Origin: a virus
Lineage: Duplodnaviria; Heunggongvirae; Uroviricota; Caudoviricetes
Strand: one strand, 5' to 3'
DNA: 9,305 nucleotides
Virus record (IMG/VR): IMGVR_UViG_2711768006_000002
Shown: positions 80 through 7,472 of the stretch, piece after piece
How the letters are laid out: the number at the start of each line of letters is the position of its first letter
Position numbering within the stretch: position 1 is the first letter of the stretch
Notes under the pieces: generated by a model
Told to the model about the DNA's origin: nothing
What the model saw: only the letters and a program-made list of their open reading frames with translations
The model's database searches: none
Program-made: the position numbers and the translations under genes

Positions 80-1236
80 TTAACTGATCGGCATTACACC
101 ACCGGGACGCGGATTCATATCTTCCAGGTCGCGGCAGTCATTGGAAGAGTAAATTCCCCAGTTGATCCCGGTGGCGTAGGCTTCAAAACGGGACTTCATA
201 TCCCCGCGCAGTAACGCCCCGGCGTTAAATTTGGCGTAATAAACGCCCTGCTTACTTTTTCGTACCAGTCCGGTGTTGATCCGCTGTTCGATGCGGGTCA
301 GATACGGCACCAGTGAATAGTTGATAAATCCCAGCCCCAGCTCTTCGATATTGTTGAAGGTGGCGCGATCGGTGTTCTGCACCATGTGCAACGGCACCCG
401 GAACAGACGACAGATTTCTTCCAGCTGAAACTTGCGGGTTTCCAGGAACTGACTGTCCTCGGCGTTCAGCGCCATCGACTTCCAGTCCAGCCCCATTTCC
501 AGAATCATCGGGCGGTGAGCATTGCCAAGCCCCGTGTGACACTCCTCAAAATCTTTCTTCAGACGCTCGTAAGCATCCGGCGTGAGCTTTTGTTCCGTAC
601 GCAACACACCGGATGTCACCGCACCATTACTAAACAACCTGGCACCGTGCTCCTCGGTTGCCGCTGCCAGTGAAATGGCCTCACGCGCATACGCAATGGG
701 ATTCAGCCCGACAAGTCCATCCAGCGTCAGGGTGCGCACATGCCAGATTTCATTCTGGGTCAACACATCCACGGAACCATCCGGAAACGTCACCTGATAA
801 ACCGGCTGCCACTGGCTGTTCAGCTTCGGTTCCACACAGCCCGGATCTATCGGAAGAAGCTCCACCACTTCTCCCAGTGCCTTTACCTTGTAGGCGTAAA
901 AATTCCCCCGTAGACACAGGCAGACAATAACCAGCTCCCAGAATTCCTGCGGTGTCATGTAGCCATTAGGTTTTGCCGAAACCAACTTATGCAGTCGTTC
1001 ATCCACCGCCCGTGTTTTCAGGGTACCGCTGATTTTGTAGAGACTGCAGGGCAGCATACCAACAGACTCTGCCAGCACCCTGACGCAAGAATAGACCGCC
1101 GTCAGGCGCATGGCCCGCTGGCTACTGATCCGCTTTCCGGTATAGGTGTCGTATGACAGCCCGATAGCATCAGCAGTTCTGCTGGCGTGGTCACCGGCAC
1201 ATCGCTTTTTCGTTGAAATAATCCCGAAAAGAACAC
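80..1236 (-). CDS. Phage portal protein, HK97 family; 5' end apparently frameshifted, start uncertain
   Basis: The 415-aa ORF contains a portal-like core (AMRLTAVYSCVRVLAESVGMLPCSLYK near the N-terminus, NDCRDLEDMNPRPGG at the C-terminus). The ORF-track start at 1327 is a TTG in a TTG-TTG-TTG run with no RBS and overlaps the upstream small ORF by 92 nt. A GTG at 1236-1234 overlaps the upstream stop (TAGTG) and has GGAGGT 5 nt upstream, but it is in another frame that stops at about 1105. The first in-frame ATG is at 1111. Confidence 0.8.
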
Positions 1237-1418
1237 TATTTACCTCCGCCGACAGACTGCCGTGTACGGTCGAGATATCGCGCCACCAGCCACGACCAGA
1301 ACAGGCACAGCGCCCCGGCAACAACAAAACCCGCCGGGGGATAAATCAGCCAGGCACCATACGCCAGCAAAAGCGCACCCAGCACGCCCACCAGAGGCGC
1401 GAGAATCAGCATGATCAT
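1236..1418 (-). CDS. Small membrane protein (60 aa, two predicted transmembrane helices) between large terminase and portal
   Basis: ATG at 1418 with GAGGT 4-5 nt upstream, 11 nt after the large-terminase stop. The product [60 protein letters not shown] is hydrophobic with a basic C-terminus. No homolog recalled. Confidence 0.5.
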
Positions 1419-1429
1419 AATTACCTCAG

Positions 1430-3163
1430 TTAAAGCGAGCGGATCCCGTAGGACTCAATGTGGTCAGACAGCGTGTCTTCTTTCTCGTACAGCATGGCTC
1501 TGCCAACCGCCATAATCAGCGCAACTGCACCATCGATTTTGTTTTCCGCCTGCTCTTTGACGGGTTTCACCACATCATCGTTACCCGGCATGTTTTTGCC
1601 GACCACGTTGCCGATACACCAGGTCATGATGGGATTGCCGTCATGATGAAAACGTCCCGATTCAATCGCTGCTTCCAGCTCTTTCATCGGATCGGACATA
1701 TTGGTGAAGTTCTGGACGATAGTGACGGGATTCAGGTCTTCATCAGCAAGGTCATGTGACAACCCGGTCGCCCCGAAGGGGTCGATGGGTGACTCACTGA
1801 CCGGGCTGATTTTGTTCGCCGCTTTGGCCTCCTCGAGGATGTAGCGATAATCCACCTCCGCACCATCGGTAACGGTCAGAACGCCCATTTCCACCCATTT
1901 CTGAAAGCGTTCGGCTGTCCGTCGATCTTCATTTTTCTCGACGCTGTACACCGTGTCATACGGTACCCAGAAACGCGGGGCCACACTGTAGTAATGCGTT
2001 TTACCGTCAATCTCGCGGGTATAAAGTCGCGCCATGCTGTTCATATCCAGCTTACGCGCCAGGTCAAAGGCCAGAATGCACGGCTGCCCCTCGAACTGCT
2101 CAAGGGTCAGTGATTTATCCTCGCAGCTCTGCCAGCTCACCAAGTTGAAATACGCCGAACGCGCCGACACCCAGATATTGAGGTGTTTTGTTTTAAAGAC
2201 GTTTGCCAGACGGGCGTTATTTTTCGCACGCTGCTGCTGACTTAACAAAAATTCGCGATAAACCGACACGCCAATATTTGGATTGGCTTTTTCCAGCACC
2301 TGCGGGCCGGTCCAGTCGTCACCTTCATCAACGGTATAGATGATCCCGAACAGTTCATCGTTAGGCACCGAGCCGTTGAGCATCTCGATGACTTCCCGCC
2401 GCTTGTCGTAGCACGGCCCCTCAATGTTGTACCCGGCGGTGGTGATGGCCCACATCAGTGGCTGACGTCGCGCCCCCATCCCGGTAAGCATTGTGGTATA
2501 AAGCGCATCGGTGGCATGCTCGTGATATTCATCAACCACGGCACAGTGGGGTGATGAACCATCACCTGGGTTGCCGATCAGCGGTTCAAACCGCGCGCCA
2601 TCCTCCGGACGGTTCATGTTTGAGGCGTTAACCTCAATCCCGAACGCTTCCGTCAGCATGGGTGTGCGTTTACACATCAGTCGCGCCGGGCGAAAGACTT
2701 CCCACGCCTGTTTCTCTGTCGTGGCACCGGAATACACTTCCGCGCCAAACTCGTTATCACAGGCAAAACAATACAGGGCAACACCGGCAGAGATTGCTGA
2801 TTTGCCGTTCTTACGGGGGATTTCGGTGTACACCTCCCGGAAGCGGCGCAACCGGGTGCCTTTATTGACCCAGCCAAACGCACAGCAGATCACAAATAGC
2901 TGCCACGGCTCCAGCGTGATGGGCATCCGTTTGAATGCCCACTCCCCCTTGGTGTGCGGCAACAGCTGAATAAATTTCGCGGCCCGTTCAGCCAGGTCCT
3001 TGTCGAAGCGGTAACGAAACGACTTACTTTTTTCCGCCATCAGGTCATCAAGATGGCGCTGGCAGGCCTGAATCACAAACTGGCAGGCAACAATCTTTCC
3101 GCGCACGACATCCCGGGCATACTGATTTGCAGCATTTACGTTGGGGTAAGATTTCCGGCTCAT
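1430..3163 (-). CDS. Terminase large subunit (Terminase_1 / HK97-like)
   Basis: 577-aa ORF with an ATG at 3163 overlapping the upstream stop (ATGA). It has a Walker-A-like PRKNGKS motif and the overall architecture of large terminases. It lies directly after the small terminase and before the portal. Confidence 0.92.
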
Positions 3164-3654
3164 GATTCGATAATTTTCAGAAACGGGTTAGTGGCTTTCT
3201 TCTGCCCCGCCAGGCCAATCAGACGCTGGCGGCTGCTGGGGTCGAGTCCGAGCATTGCCCCCGTGCTGCTCATCTCGGACTCCTGTTCTTTTTTGGCGGT
3301 CAGCTCCGGATTTTTGACCCTGCCGCCCATTGCACCGGTGATGGTGTTGCCCTGTATGGCAATATTTTTCACGGCACGTCGCCAGAACTCATAGGCCACG
3401 CACCACCGCTCAAGTACCGCCAGGTCAGTCACGCACAGCAGGCCCTGACCGCAGAGTTCTTTGGTTGTCAGTTGCCACATGATCGTGGCGAGAGGGAGAT
3501 CTTCTTCAGCGAACCACTCTGGTGGCTCAACACCTTTGATGGGCGTAAAAACAGGTTCATCTTTGTTCAGGGCTCGCTTGCCGGGGTTTCCGGCCAGCGC
3601 CTTGCGCGCCGTTGGCTTGGGGCGACGCCCGGAACGCCCCGCCGTTCCAGCCAT
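3160..3654 (-). CDS. Terminase small subunit, P27 family
   Basis: The ORF track starts at GTG 3663, but that GTG lies inside the Shine-Dalgarno sequence AGGAGT. The ATG at 3654 is 8 nt downstream of AGGAG and gives [27 protein letters not shown], typical of P27-family small terminases. The stop overlaps the large-terminase start. Confidence 0.88.
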
Positions 3655-3693
3655 ATGCGGCACTCCTGGTTAAATTTCATTTTTCGCGGGTAT

Positions 3694-3753
3694 AAAAAAA
3701 CGATGGGGCGGGCAGTCCGGAAGACGTCAGGTCACAGGGATTTGCCCCGCCCC
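3694..3753 (-). other. GC-rich inverted repeat plus T7 run in the HNH-terS intergenic region; candidate cos/packaging site or terminator-like element
   Basis: Arms at plus 3705-3714 (GGGGCGGGCA) and 3743-3753 (TGCCCCGCCCC) are separated by 28 nt. On the minus strand they are followed by TTTTTTT (plus A-run 3694-3700). In HK97-type phages cos lies between the HNH gene and the small terminase gene. Confidence 0.35.
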
Positions 3754-3775
3754 TCCCTACAAGTGAGAATAATTA

Positions 3776-4126
3776 TCACCGGATTCGTTCGCGCGCTGTT
3801 TTCGCTTTATGGCAGGGCCAGCACAGACTCTGCAGGTTGCTGTCTGCGTCTGTTCCGCCATGCGCTTTCGGGATGATGTGGTCGACGGTTTTCGCCTCGC
3901 TCACCACACCGACACGCAGACACAACTGACACAGACCTTTATCGCGCTTCAGAATACGGGCACGAATCACCGTCCATTTTGAGCCATAGCCACGCTGGTG
4001 GCGGCTCAGTCCGCGCTGGTGCTGCACCCAGCCTTCACCGCGATGTTTATCGCAGTAACCCGAACTGTCTGTGGTTGTACCTGCACATCCACGCTTACGG
4101 CAGGCACGTGGGATTAGTGATGGCAT
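3776..4126 (-). CDS. HNH endonuclease (phage packaging-associated, HK97 gp74-like)
   Basis: 116-aa ORF with ATG at 4126 and GAGGT 5 nt upstream. It is Cys/His-rich with CxxC pairs and an HNH-type motif (DHIIPKAHGGTDADSNLQSLCWPCH). It sits immediately upstream of the small terminase. Confidence 0.88.
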   Translation of the reverse strand: MPSLIPRACRKRGCAGTTTDSSGYCDKHRGEGWVQHQRGLSRHQRGYGSKWTVIRARILKRDKGLCQLCLRVGVVSEAKTVDHIIPKAHGGTDADSNLQSLCWPCHKAKTARERIR

Positions 4127-4168
4127 AAATACCTCATACCCTGCGAAATGTTTACCACGATAAAAAGG

Positions 4169-4411
4169 CTACTTAATGCACTGAGTGCGGATATACTCCT
4201 GTGCCCCTTCCAGTTGCATCTGCATCGTCATCAGCCGCTCTCTGAGGGTGAAATAATCCCGTTCAGCGGTGTCTGCCAGTCGGGGGCTGGTTGCATTATC
4301 CACGCCGGAGGCGGTGGTGGCTTCACGCACTGACTGACAGACTGCTTTGATGTGCAACCGACGACGACCAGCGGCAACATCAGCGCGCAGAGTTTCATTT
4401 TCAGCTTTCGC
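4169..4411 (-). CDS. Rz: Rz i-spanin, C-terminal portion (5' part lost in N run)
   Basis: The visible 80 aa (AKAENETLRADVAAGRRRLHIKAVCQSVREATTASGVDNATSPRLADTAERDYFTLRERLMTMQMQLEGAQEYIRTQCIK) are near-identical to the C-terminal half of lambda Rz as I recall it. Stop TAG at 4169-4171. Confidence 0.88.
   Translation of the reverse strand, partial: AKAENETLRADVAAGRRRLHIKAVCQSVREATTASGVDNATSPRLADTAERDYFTLRERLMTMQMQLEGAQEYIRTQCIK
4231..4398 (-). CDS. Rz1: Rz1 o-spanin lipoprotein embedded in Rz in the +1 frame
   Basis: Product MKLCALMLPLVVVGCTSKQSVSQCVKPPPPPAWIMQPAPDWQTPLNGIISPSESG has a lipobox (VVGC) and a penta-proline tract, matching lambda Rz1. The true start may lie 1-5 codons upstream inside the N run (lambda Rz1 begins MLKLKMM). 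Confidence 0.85.
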   Translation of the reverse strand: MKLCALMLPLVVVGCTSKQSVSQCVKPPPPPAWIMQPAPDWQTPLNGIISPSESG

Positions 4412-4610
4412 NNNNNNNNNNNNNNNNNNNNNNNNNNNNNNNNNNNNNNNNNNNNNNNNNNNNNNNNNNNNNNNNNNNNNNNNNNNNNNNNNNNNNNNNN
4501 NNNNNNNNNNNNNNNNNNNNNNNNNNNNNNNNNNNNNNNNNNNNNNNNNNNNNNNNNNNNNNNNNNNNNNNNNNNNNNNNNNNNNNNNNNNNNNNNNNNN
4601 NNNNNNNNNN
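4412..4610. other. Run of 199 N (assembly gap or masked segment)
   Basis: Continuous N. The flanking reading frames cannot be joined: the endolysin N-terminus is above it and the Rz C-terminus below it, in different frames, with about 600 nt of expected coding sequence unaccounted for. Confidence 0.95.
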
Positions 4611-4700
4611 ACCACCTGGGCCAGTGATTAACACAGATGCTATAGCAACAGCCCCACCACCAATAGCAGCTGCAACAGCCTTGCGTAATGATGGCGACAT
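4611..4700 (-). CDS. R: SAR endolysin (phage 21 R21-like lysozyme), N-terminal 30 codons only
   Basis: ATG at 4700 with GAGGTG 4 nt upstream. The product [30 protein letters not shown] matches the signal-anchor-release domain of phage 21 endolysin. The stop of the upstream holin overlaps the start (TAATG). Confidence 0.8.
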
Positions 4701-4867
4701 TATTCACCTCTCGCAGCCTTACGCTTGTCTTCTCTTATTTTGAAATACAGATTTGTCAGATAAGTCAGAAGCCCCAGAAGCAGACTTCCCAGCACACCAA
4801 TCGCAGCCCACTGTGATGGACTGACCTGATCCAACCACTGCAAAAACCAGTAGCCGGCACTGCCGGC
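4700..4867 (-). CDS. S: Pinholin (phage 21 S21-like class II holin), C-terminal 55 codons; 5' end lost in N run
   Basis: The visible [55 protein letters not shown] is near-identical to the S21 pinholin as recalled. Stop TAA at 4700-4702. Confidence 0.82.
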
Positions 4868-5117
4868 NNNNNNNNNNNNNNNNNNNNNNNNNNNNNNNNN
4901 NNNNNNNNNNNNNNNNNNNNNNNNNNNNNNNNNNNNNNNNNNNNNNNNNNNNNNNNNNNNNNNNNNNNNNNNNNNNNNNNNNNNNNNNNNNNNNNNNNNN
5001 NNNNNNNNNNNNNNNNNNNNNNNNNNNNNNNNNNNNNNNNNNNNNNNNNNNNNNNNNNNNNNNNNNNNNNNNNNNNNNNNNNNNNNNNNNNNNNNNNNNN
5101 NNNNNNNNNNNNNNNNN
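4868..5117. other. Run of 250 N (assembly gap or masked segment)
   Basis: Continuous N lying between the tRNA array and the holin. It hides the holin start (about 16 codons) and roughly 200 nt or more of upstream sequence. Confidence 0.95.
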
Positions 5118-5180
5118 GAGTCAGACATTCCCACACAATATTGTGTCAGTGCAAATAACAACCTTCGTCTCAAATCTCGC

Positions 5181-5255
<75 letters not shown>

Positions 5256-5258
5256 ATA

Positions 5259-5334
<76 letters not shown>

Positions 5335-5336
5335 GC

Positions 5337-5413
5337 TGGCCCACCACCGAGGACTCGAACCTCGCACCGTCAACTTAGAAGGTTGATGCTCTATCCGGAT
5401 GAGCTAGTGGTGG
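5337..5413 (-). tRNA. tRNA-Arg (anticodon UCU, reads AGA/AGG)
   Basis: Reverse complement reads CCACCACTAGCTCATCCGGATAGAGCATCAACCTTCTAAGTTGACGGTGCGAGGTTCGAGTCCTCGGTGGTGGGCCA. Anticodon stem TCAAC/GTTGA, loop CUUCUAA, T-loop TTCGAGT, encoded CCA. Confidence 0.85.
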
Positions 5414-5414
5414 T

Positions 5415-5491
5415 TGGTGGCCCTTGCTGGACTTGAACCAGCGACCTGGCGATTATGAGTCGCTCGCTCTGACCAACTGAGCTAAAGGGCC
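5415..5491 (-). tRNA. tRNA-Ile2-like (anticodon CAU, ileX/ileZ type)
   Basis: Reverse complement reads GGCCCTTTAGCTCAGTTGGTCAGAGCGAGCGACTCATAATCGCCAGGTCGCTGGTTCAAGTCCAGCAAGGGCCACCA. Anticodon loop CUCAUAA. It closely resembles E. coli ileX (minor isoleucine tRNA) rather than tRNA-Met. Confidence 0.85.
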
Positions 5492-5680: not shown

Positions 5681-6250
5681 TTAAAACCGCATCAACCGCT
5701 CCACCAGTTGCTCTTTACGGGCAACGATCCACCCGTGTTGCTCCAGATAAAATTTAAACCGTTCCAGAGTACATACCATCGCATCGGCGGGTACCTTTTC
5801 CGTGAACTCAACCTGACCGTGTTTATCGAAGTGGCTCAGTAATGCGCATCCATCATTTTCGATAGATGTGTTTTGTGCCGCTGGTGGCTGTTTCTGGTTG
5901 AAATAACAGTCTTCCAGTTTTTCGAACACTTCCCACGCCTGATCGGTTTCGAGCATTTTGGCGTGACGGGCTGCGCCACGTTCTGTCCAGAGGATGAGGG
6001 AGCGAACGTTACGGGCAATTTTCACAGAAACTCTTAAAGAGTTTTCGTTCTTCAACTCTCGTAACGCATCACCTTCTATCAGGAAAAAATGTTTACCTTC
6101 TATAAACCGTTCTTTGTTTCGATTGAAATTGTTTGTCAAACGCTGGCGCTCTGTTCCGTACAAATCAGCCAGCAGCTCTGTTGTCATGACAGGAAGATGG
6201 TTATGCGTAAGTGACGGGAGTTTTTCAATAGACGTGCGATTCATAGACAT
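5681..6250 (-). CDS. ORF6N-domain protein (KilA-N/Bro-N-like, phage antirepressor-like), cargo gene between Q and the lysis cassette
   Basis: The 253-aa ORF begins at a GTG with no RBS. The ATG pair at 6250/6244 is preceded by AAAGGA and gives MSMNRTSIEKLPSLTHNHLPVMTTELLADLYGTERQRLTNNFNRNKERFIEGKHFFL, which fits the ORF6N consensus as I recall it (LAELYGV..RLNE..KRN.ERFPEDFMFQL). The C-terminal half is not recognised. Confidence 0.6.
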   Translation of the reverse strand: MSMNRTSIEKLPSLTHNHLPVMTTELLADLYGTERQRLTNNFNRNKERFIEGKHFFLIEGDALRELKNENSLRVSVKIARNVRSLILWTERGAARHAKMLETDQAWEVFEKLEDCYFNQKQPPAAQNTSIENDGCALLSHFDKHGQVEFTEKVPADAMVCTLERFKFYLEQHGWIVARKEQLVERLMRF

Positions 6251-6605
6251 GTCCTTTCGAATATTTTGATTTACCCCTTTTGAGAGGGTGACCGGGCGCT
6301 CAAAACCGTCGAAAGTCGGCGGGCGTATTTCCATTGCTGGTATTGTATTAGCCGCACACCCGGTCATAAACCAAGAATTCTGGACACAAAAAAACCACAT
6401 GGCTATCGGGTGTGGATACCGCTTTCGAGGTGTTTTGAGCACCGCGGGGAAATGTAAACTGCAAACCTGAAACTGTCAACACCGTCAGGTTCCAATCATC
6501 GGGTGGTGAGACGCACAGGGTTGGAACTACCGGGAAACCGACCGGCGAGCTTTTCAGCTCCCCCATGCGCCCCACCATAATTCAGATGTGCGCGTGCATA
6601 CGACA

Positions 6606-6630
6606 ATAAAAAACACGCTCGCGGCGTGTG
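6606..6630 (-). terminator. Candidate tR' (late-operon terminator read through by Q-modified polymerase)
   Basis: On the minus strand: ACACGC-CGCGA-GCGTGT hairpin followed by TTTTTTATTG (plus A-run 6608-6613), about 75 nt downstream of the candidate pR' start site. Confidence 0.5.
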
Positions 6631-6690
6631 TCTGTCGCGGTCTCTATCCGGGGTTCCAATCCCGACGCCAGATTTTGCTGGCGCGTGAGG

Positions 6691-6720
6691 AATATAGCCC
6701 CGGACAATGTGTCTGGTCAA
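6691..6720 (-). promoter_or_regulatory. Candidate late promoter pR' with Q-utilisation region
   Basis: On the minus strand, 5 nt after the Q stop: -35 TTGACC (plus 6715-6720), 18-nt spacer, -10 TATATT (plus 6691-6696). Position immediately downstream of Q matches lambdoid pR'. Confidence 0.55.
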
Positions 6721-6724
6721 GCAC

Positions 6725-7111
6725 CTACATAATTCGTTCTACGTATCTGTCCATCTCCAGCCGGATATCAAGCATCATCAACATGCCATCAATAACCCCT
6801 TCCGCTTTCTGCAGGCGCTTGCCAATACAGGTATCCGAACACCCATGTTTCCGTGCCAGACTCATAAAAGTCATTCCACCTACGTAATAATCCACCAGCA
6901 AATCGTGCAAATCCTGATTTTTCTTGTTCAACCGGGCCATACAGCCACAAATTATCATTGCATCATCATCAGAACACTGAGGGCGTGATTTCACTTTCGA
7001 CGGAATTAACCCTTTAAAACCAGCAGCGATCGACGCCCAGGATACATCTTCATGAGTGTTTGCAGCCCAAGCCCCCCACCGTTCCATAACCTGCTGAATA
7101 TCACGCGCCAT
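6725..7111 (-). CDS. Q: Late-gene antitermination protein Q (phage 82/21-type)
   Basis: ATG at 7111 with AGGTGA 6 nt upstream, overlapping the rusA 3' end. Product [61 protein letters not shown] matches the Q family found in E. coli prophages. Confidence 0.9.
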
Positions 7112-7472
7112 CGTTATCACCTGTGATTTCATAAATCTTCACGCCCAGTCGCCCACCAGGAACGAGCTGACCGCGCACAATATTGATTTCATCAAACTGC
7201 TCGTCGTCTATGAGTAGTCCGGCATGCGTCAGCGCATCCAGTGGTGCTTTCAGGATATTGTCCAGGTCACGACGGCGCTTATCCGGTGGCTCTGCAATAA
7301 TCTTTATCGCCAGCCTTCCGGACAGGTTTAATTTCAGCCGCTGCTGGCGAACAATTAGCGTCACATCACGGCGATAACGCTCACCAACTTTTGATACAAA
7401 ATATGTGCTGCCACGACGTCGCCAGTAAGTATTCACCGTCGGCGGATAAGGTAAAATAAACTCATGGCGCAT
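7101..7472 (-). CDS. rusA: RusA-family Holliday junction resolvase
   Basis: 123-aa ORF with ATG at 7472 overlapping the upstream stop (TGATG). It has the RusA-like catalytic region [29 protein letters not shown]. Its position just upstream of Q is typical of the nin region. Confidence 0.88.

Follow-up and report, generated by a model that had tools for sequence, protein, structure and literature searches.

The spacer between the HNH endonuclease gene and the small terminase gene (terS) in the DNA analysed here, a 9,305-nt stretch from the IMG/VR record IMGVR_UViG_2711768006_000002 (the window), is very probably the cos site of a lambdoid prophage that packages its DNA like HK97, SfV and phiP27. 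The earlier note had placed cos in this spacer by analogy with HK97-like phages, and the mapped DNA ends of four relatives bear this out. A cos site of an SfV/phiP27/HK97-type prophage is already known and ordinary, and it is no new kind of element. Only two points are mildly new: the upstream module of the site is common across TerS types, and its conspicuous inverted repeat appears to be incidental.

Gene context of the spacer

The genes around the candidate cos site all lie on the minus strand, with the portal gene at 80–1327 and the following genes between it and the lysis region:

3776–4126, minus strand: HNH endonuclease gene (116 aa; stop codon at 3776–3778), the accessory nuclease of HK97-type packaging
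3160–3654, minus strand: terS, small terminase of the P27 family (164 aa; Shine-Dalgarno sequence AGGAG at 3668–3664)
1430–3163, minus strand: terL, large terminase (577 aa; Pfam TerL_ATPase and TerL_nuclease domains)

Read along the minus strand, the Pfam matches follow the order HNH, Terminase_4, TerL_ATPase with TerL_nuclease, and Phage_portal, which is an HK97-like gene context. The HNH gene matches Pfam HNH (PF01844, E = 1.6e-16) and PHROG 144 (HNH endonuclease), and its product is 34% identical to HK97 gp74 over 70 aa (E = 2e-10). TerL is 26% identical to HK97 gp2 (E = 8e-31).

The start of terS is given as GTG (3663) in the list of open reading frames and as ATG (3654–3652) in the annotations of SfI, SfIV and SfII. 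Because the annotated start in these phages is the ATG, the true HNH–terS spacer comprises 3655–3775. On the minus strand it reads ...GGGAGGGGCGGGG CAAATC CCTGTGACCTGACGTCTTCCGGAC TGCCCGCCCC ATCG TTTTTTT ATA CCCGCG AAAAAT GAAATTTAA CCAGGAGTGCCGCAT ATG. An Rfam scan of the window returned no family match in the spacer.

The packaging module (97–4004) is 93–95% identical to those of SfI, SfII, SfIV and related Escherichia and Salmonella phages, and about 87% identical to that of phiP27. The remainder of the window carries genes of the same prophage. The Q antiterminator gene occupies 6725–7132. Just downstream of it, 6282–6697 on the minus strand gives Rfam matches above the gathering score to isrK, c4-a1b1, C4 antisense RNA and sRNA-Xcc1, followed by an ORF (5681–6442) with an antirepressor-like ORF6N domain; together these resemble a regulatory module of the P1/P7 C4-ant type or the isrK type. 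A tandem array of four tRNA genes, Met(CAT), Arg(TCT), Thr(TGT) and Gly(TCC), occupies 5181–5491 on the minus strand between the Q/antirepressor region and the holin gene. A capsid-forming PICI satellite was rejected as the source of the window in view of its genes for Q, lysis, tRNAs and replication, a set characteristic of complete lambdoid prophages.

In the lysis region (4126–5173, minus strand), a holin domain is located at the end of ORF 4700–5173 and Rz/Rz1 at 4169–4615. No endolysin domain was detected with Pfam between the holin and Rz genes, and the holin stop and the HNH start are no more than about 570 nt apart. The lysis cassette thus looks incomplete and the prophage may be lysis-defective, in which case the cos site may be intact yet unused.

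The predicted cohesive end and position of the cut

Mapped ends of relatives place the predicted cut at 3705–3714. The ends of DNA from free SfI particles were sequenced directly by run-off. Set against the prophage, the reads were separated by a gap of 10 nucleotides, 5'-TGCCCGCCCC-3', that the authors interpret as cos (PMC3636060). The earlier note had proposed mapping virion ends as a check; in effect this has already been done on close relatives, and the SfI gap is the same 10-mer that occurs in the window as a single exact copy (3714–3705, minus strand):

3705–3714, minus strand: cohesive end (cosN-like), 5'-TGCCCGCCCC-3', identical to the SfI virion-DNA gap

Sequence records of the relatives converge on the same alignment column. 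The SfI record begins with GTCGTTTTTTT and its last bases are ...ACTGCCCGCCCC, with the 10-mer at the end. The phiP27 entry (GenBank AJ298298) annotates 21806–21815 as a misc_feature, 'cos-site', with the sequence CGCCCGCCCC. The HK97 record is bounded by the cos end and closes with ...AATGAC CGCCGCCAAA, the final 10 nt of which fall in this column. The record of Edwardsiella phage EPP-1, whose assembly its authors corrected with PhageTerm, finishes ...CCGTAC TGCCCGCCTC and starts at +1. TerS of EPP-1 matches window TerS at 146 of 164 residues, and the HNH proteins are 70% identical. Homology to SfI, phiP27, HK97 and EPP-1 therefore supports the position of the cut in the window.

The minus strand would be nicked between 3705 and 3704 and the plus strand between 3714 and 3715, and nicks so placed would give 10-nt 3' overhangs. 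This polarity is suggested for the window by the SfI data, since run-off reads from the two ends that leave a gap, and do not overlap, point to recessed 5' ends and thus 3' overhangs. Overhangs of 10 nt at the 3' ends are documented for HK97.

Some details of the published records bear mention. The SfI paper describes the SfV cos as one base off that of SfI at its 5' end (T versus A) (PMC3636060); contrary to this, the SfV record (U82619.2) reads TGCCCGCCCC, identical to SfI. In the SfV and SfIV records the linearisation point lies 7 nt upstream of the mapped 10-mer, not at it. In EPP-1, terS (48–653 of the sequence compared) encodes a 37-residue internal tandem duplication relative to the window TerS, apparently a repeat of approximately residues 19–55, and the phage forms plaques despite it.

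Conserved elements on both sides of the cut

We collected the regions upstream of terS from 80 IMG/VR contigs and 62 species-level genomes, with TerS proteins 47–100% identical to that of the window. Reduction to 49 non-redundant sequences yielded a nearly gap-free alignment (A2), in which the following elements stand out around the cohesive end:

3745–3757, minus strand: G-rich block, GGGAGGGGCGGGG, which includes the HNH-proximal repeat arm (3746–3753)
3739–3744, minus strand: CAAATC motif, directly 3' of the G block and conserved in A2
3715–3738, minus strand: 24-nt spacer of variable sequence and fixed length, with a conserved GAC (3717–3715) at its end, just before the cut
3694–3700, minus strand: T7 run, +5 to +11 from the cut
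3670–3700, minus strand: putative cosB-like block, TTTTTTT-ATA-CCCGCG-AAAAAT-GAAATTTAA, the most conserved stretch of A2

Upstream of the cut, columns G13–G15 and G18 of the G block are invariant or nearly so. A G block is also found in HK97 (as G10) and upstream of all five cosB types that we found in IMG/VR. The CAAATC motif appears as TCAAATC in most relatives and in HK97. The 24-nt length is maintained in HK97 and throughout A2, which gains a single column at each of two positions. Sequence varies in the 24-nt spacer and in the final bases of the 10-mer, and G.AC and.GCC are strongly conserved at the cut itself.

Downstream, T67–T69 of the T run are invariant and T70 nearly so. The T run opens a block of about 30 bp (+5 to +34) that is unique in the window, nearly invariant over the 49 relatives and retained from Enterobacterales to prophages of Comamonas and Acidovorax, in which it is still invariant. 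Within it, CCCGCGAAAAAT occupies +15 to +26. HK97 TerS has its minimal site at +15 to +29, where Arg128 reads a C/G block next to an A-tract that must remain A:T-rich, and the TerS nonamer holds ~28 bp of DNA (PMC11331095). The position of the downstream block and its C/G plus A-tract composition parallel this site, suggesting that the block, probably together with the T7 run, is the binding site of TerS (cosB-like). The roles that we assign to the G block and to the downstream block are suggested by conservation and by analogy to HK97.

Comparison with known cos sites

SfI, SfII, SfIV and SfV share their sequence with the window from a segment of the spacer through terS, and their T7 run and CCCGCGAAAAATGAAATTTAA block are identical to those of the window. 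They differ on the HNH side, where the window has GGGGCGGGGCAAATC and these phages have GGGGCGGGTCAAATC; the 3' end of the window HNH gene resembles that of phiP27, not that of SfV. In the Stx2e phage phiP27, cos likewise lies between an HNH-like gene (L34) and terS (L35), the 10-mer CGCCCGCCCC is one base off that of the window, and neither the G block nor the 24-nt spacing differs. In contrast, its downstream module is GTCAAATTTTTACACCCGCGAAATTAAAAA, and TerS proteins of the phiP27 type are only 49% identical to that of the window.

HK97 shares with the window the gene order HNH, cos, terS, terL, portal, and its cos needs gp1 (TerS), gp2 (TerL) and gp74 (HNH). A G-run and TCAAATC are followed by 24 nt, GAC and the cohesive end, a C/G block and an A:T tract lie at about +15 to +30, and the terS ATG is at +50 (+51 in the window). 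The comparison with the HK97 cos region that the earlier note had called for confirms a cut in the same column and divides the site in two. Over the 55 nt that precede the HK97 end, a mean of 30.7 of 55 positions match members of the family in register 0 (best 39/55) versus 13.5 ± 2.8 matches at other offsets, whereas the cohesive end differs (CGCCGCCAAA) and the 45 nt downstream lack similarity.

The proteins split as the DNA halves do: TerL and the HNH protein are homologous to HK97 gp2 and gp74, and TerS shows no detectable sequence similarity to gp1. BLASTP detected no similarity between window TerS and gp1, and gp1 matches no Pfam family and thus is not a member of Terminase_4. The window TerS likewise had no match among PDB sequences and no significant structural match in Foldseek. 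The resemblance between window TerS and gp1 is at the level of the fold only.

The cos site of lambda (cosQ-cosN-cosB) is similarly organized, with an upstream element, a nick site and a region on the first-packaged side that binds the small terminase, and late transcription crosses the joined site in lambda as well. Lambda has 12-nt 5' overhangs and a terminase of Nu1 and gpA, uses IHF and is not known to have an HNH protein. A lambda-type cos was rejected for the window, which has terminases of the Terminase_4 and HK97-type TerL families together with an HNH gene; the cohesive end of the relatives is 10 nt.

The inverted repeat and the T run

The most conspicuous feature of the spacer is an inverted repeat, which a repeat search defines as 8 perfect base pairs (3705–3712 / 3746–3753) with 33 nt between the arms. 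On the minus strand, GGGGCGGGGCA (3753–3743) is followed by 28 nt, TGCCCGCCCC (3714–3705), ATCG and TTTTTTT (3700–3694), so that the terS-proximal arm is the cohesive end itself and the T7 run begins 4 nt past the stem. The earlier note had described a 10-bp GC repeat with a 28-nt loop followed by T7. Repeat and T7 run do exist, but pairing is perfect over 8 bp only, and 10 pairs around a 28-nt loop require G3745 to be bulged (a 1-nt bulge).

Could the hairpin and U7 form an intrinsic terminator or attenuator that closes the lysis-HNH unit, possibly alongside the cos function? RNA polymerase lacking the Q modification would then halt before the head genes. We consider this unlikely. In its favor, the RNA of the G block pairs with the cohesive-end sequence to form a GC-rich stem that ends 1–4 nt before U7, with fold energies of –26.8 to –27.8 kcal/mol, and in 31 of 49 relatives, by raw count and with different stems, the structure of lowest energy also closes no more than 3 nt from the T-run. 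Yet the fold of the window spacer (–27.8 kcal/mol) is no more stable than those of shuffled sequences (–24.95 ± 3.2 kcal/mol; z = –0.89), its interior loop measures 28 nt, and a consensus scan limited to loops of 3–8 nt found no terminator in 3000–4800. Nor is the stem maintained by compensatory changes. No covariation was detected in the 49 non-redundant relatives of A2, where the score fell under the shuffle mean; the ten stem pairs show standard pairing in 68.0% of cells, compared to 69.2% after partners were shuffled among sequences.

A further point in favor of a terminator comes from Xenorhabdus relatives, in which a compact hairpin of 9–10 bp immediately precedes T7 and changes that appear compensatory distinguish L122, L123 and L124. 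A hairpin of this type gives a weak family-wide signal, as the observed pairing was reached in 7 of 500 shuffles, but controls slid by +1 and +2 score equally or higher and the signal is lineage-limited. The spacing of the T-run from the cut is constant and the run extends into the invariant block CCCGCGAAAAATGAAATTTAA, which termination would leave unexplained; a T-run also occupies the same place next to unrelated downstream modules. Finally, a consensus scan found no promoter-like site on the minus strand between HNH and terS, and the Q antiterminator gene lies upstream; without a terS promoter of its own, late transcription must read through the cos region.

The Xenorhabdus hairpin (prophages L117, L119–L124 and L134) is a local structure within the 26 nt that precede the T-run; it encloses the predicted cut and abuts T6–T7. 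The pairs that change between lineages are GCCCCAAGG/CCTTGGGGC, GACCCAAGG/CCTTGGGTC and CCCAC/GTGGG, and they have no equivalent in the window.

Less probable still is a role of the repeat as a DNA element, either a cruciform or symmetric sites for a dimeric nuclease or terminase, that is needed for cos recognition. One arm coincides with the cut site, and 8 bp of the arms pair perfectly in the window, SfI, SfII, SfIV, SfV and phiP27. However, an inverted repeat of at least 8 perfect bp arises in 8% of dinucleotide shuffles of the 112-nt spacer delimited in the earlier note (P = 0.08), and pairing in the 49 relatives is no better than in shuffles. In most lineages the G block and the cut region are perfectly complementary over a stretch of at most 3–5 bp, and complementarity of G block and cohesive end is the same within as between lineages (permutation p = 0.45 and 0.58). 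Changes in one arm leave the other unaffected: prophages with the same terS side as the window have GGGGGAGG in the G block, which lacks the C, and retain the cohesive end unchanged, as do relatives with G-only blocks, and HK97 is cut in the same column with a plain G10 run as its G block. In addition, the repeat and the cohesive end have centers ~24 bp apart, so the two nicks are not symmetric about the repeat.

The most plausible reading is that the inverted repeat results incidentally from a G-rich block and a C-rich cohesive end and would not itself be under selection. The two elements are complementary in composition, and their presence on one strand will always resemble a repeat. On one point the earlier note needs correcting, as the operative feature is not the repeat: one arm is the cohesive end, the other belongs to the separately conserved G block, and the pairing is not maintained in relatives. 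An alternative hairpin with TCAAATC as its loop gave no signal on A2, and a G-quadruplex reading of the G block was set aside; the strand carries only three G-runs in the window.

A common upstream half joined to different downstream halves

We scanned IMG/VR with the pattern GGNTCAAATC-N21-GACCGCC, which does not require the G block, and obtained at least 120 loci. In these, the same upstream half, G block included, is joined to at least five different downstream halves. The TerS proteins encoded next to the different downstream types are 49%, 31% or 28% identical to window TerS or have no detectable identity. All five downstream types, HK97 included, carry a T-run at about +4 to +11, which is followed by a type-specific GC core and further A:T tracts.

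These observations raise the possibility, which we put forward tentatively, that the G block, (T)CAAATC 24 nt before the cohesive end and the T-run (+5 to +11) are a core cos module common to HK97 and at least five TerS/cosB types. This core could be a cosQ-like termination or nicking element read by the TerL-HNH pair, and new packaging specificities would come from an exchange of just the TerS gene and the 25–30 bp next to it. We found no description of such a shared core in the literature searched, a search that lay outside the primary genome papers of HK97, SfV and phiP27.

One IMG/VR contig (L258) carries a natural hybrid cos in which an HK97-like upstream half, GGGCAGGGGGGGGATCAAATCTTCAAAACCTTTGCCCC, is fused to a downstream half of type C, CCTCTTTTCACATCGCCGCAGGTTAGAAAAC. 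This is the arrangement expected if upstream and downstream halves recombine independently. The window itself has a mosaic joint at the G block (about 3739–3790). The 3' end of HNH and the start of the spacer are phiP27-like (GGTGATAATTATTCTCACTTGT...), and from CAAATC on the spacer and terS are SfV/SfI-like. Other prophages with an identical terS side bear two other HNH 3' ends.

Discussion

Together, the mapped ends and the conserved elements suggest how the site may work. TerS and TerL, with the HNH protein, would nick concatemeric or circular phage DNA twice, 10 bp apart, around TGCCCGCCCC. The nicks would leave 10-nt 3' cohesive ends, and packaging would then begin from the terS side. TerL and the HNH protein would read the upstream module, comprising the G block, CAAATC, the 24-nt spacer to GAC and the C-rich 10-mer, which would act as cosN plus a cosQ-like element. 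The downstream module (+5 to +34) would be the binding site for its particular TerS subfamily.

The spacer was found in 1294 of 5426 complete E. coli genomes, and its assignment as cos would fix where the genome begins and ends in a very common type of enterobacterial prophage. Knowing where cos lies helps to annotate prophages, to predict which DNA is packaged or transduced and to design cos-based delivery particles. For HK97-type packaging the comparison is of modest value: it indicates which bases to mutate and separates a shared nick-site half from a TerS-specific half.
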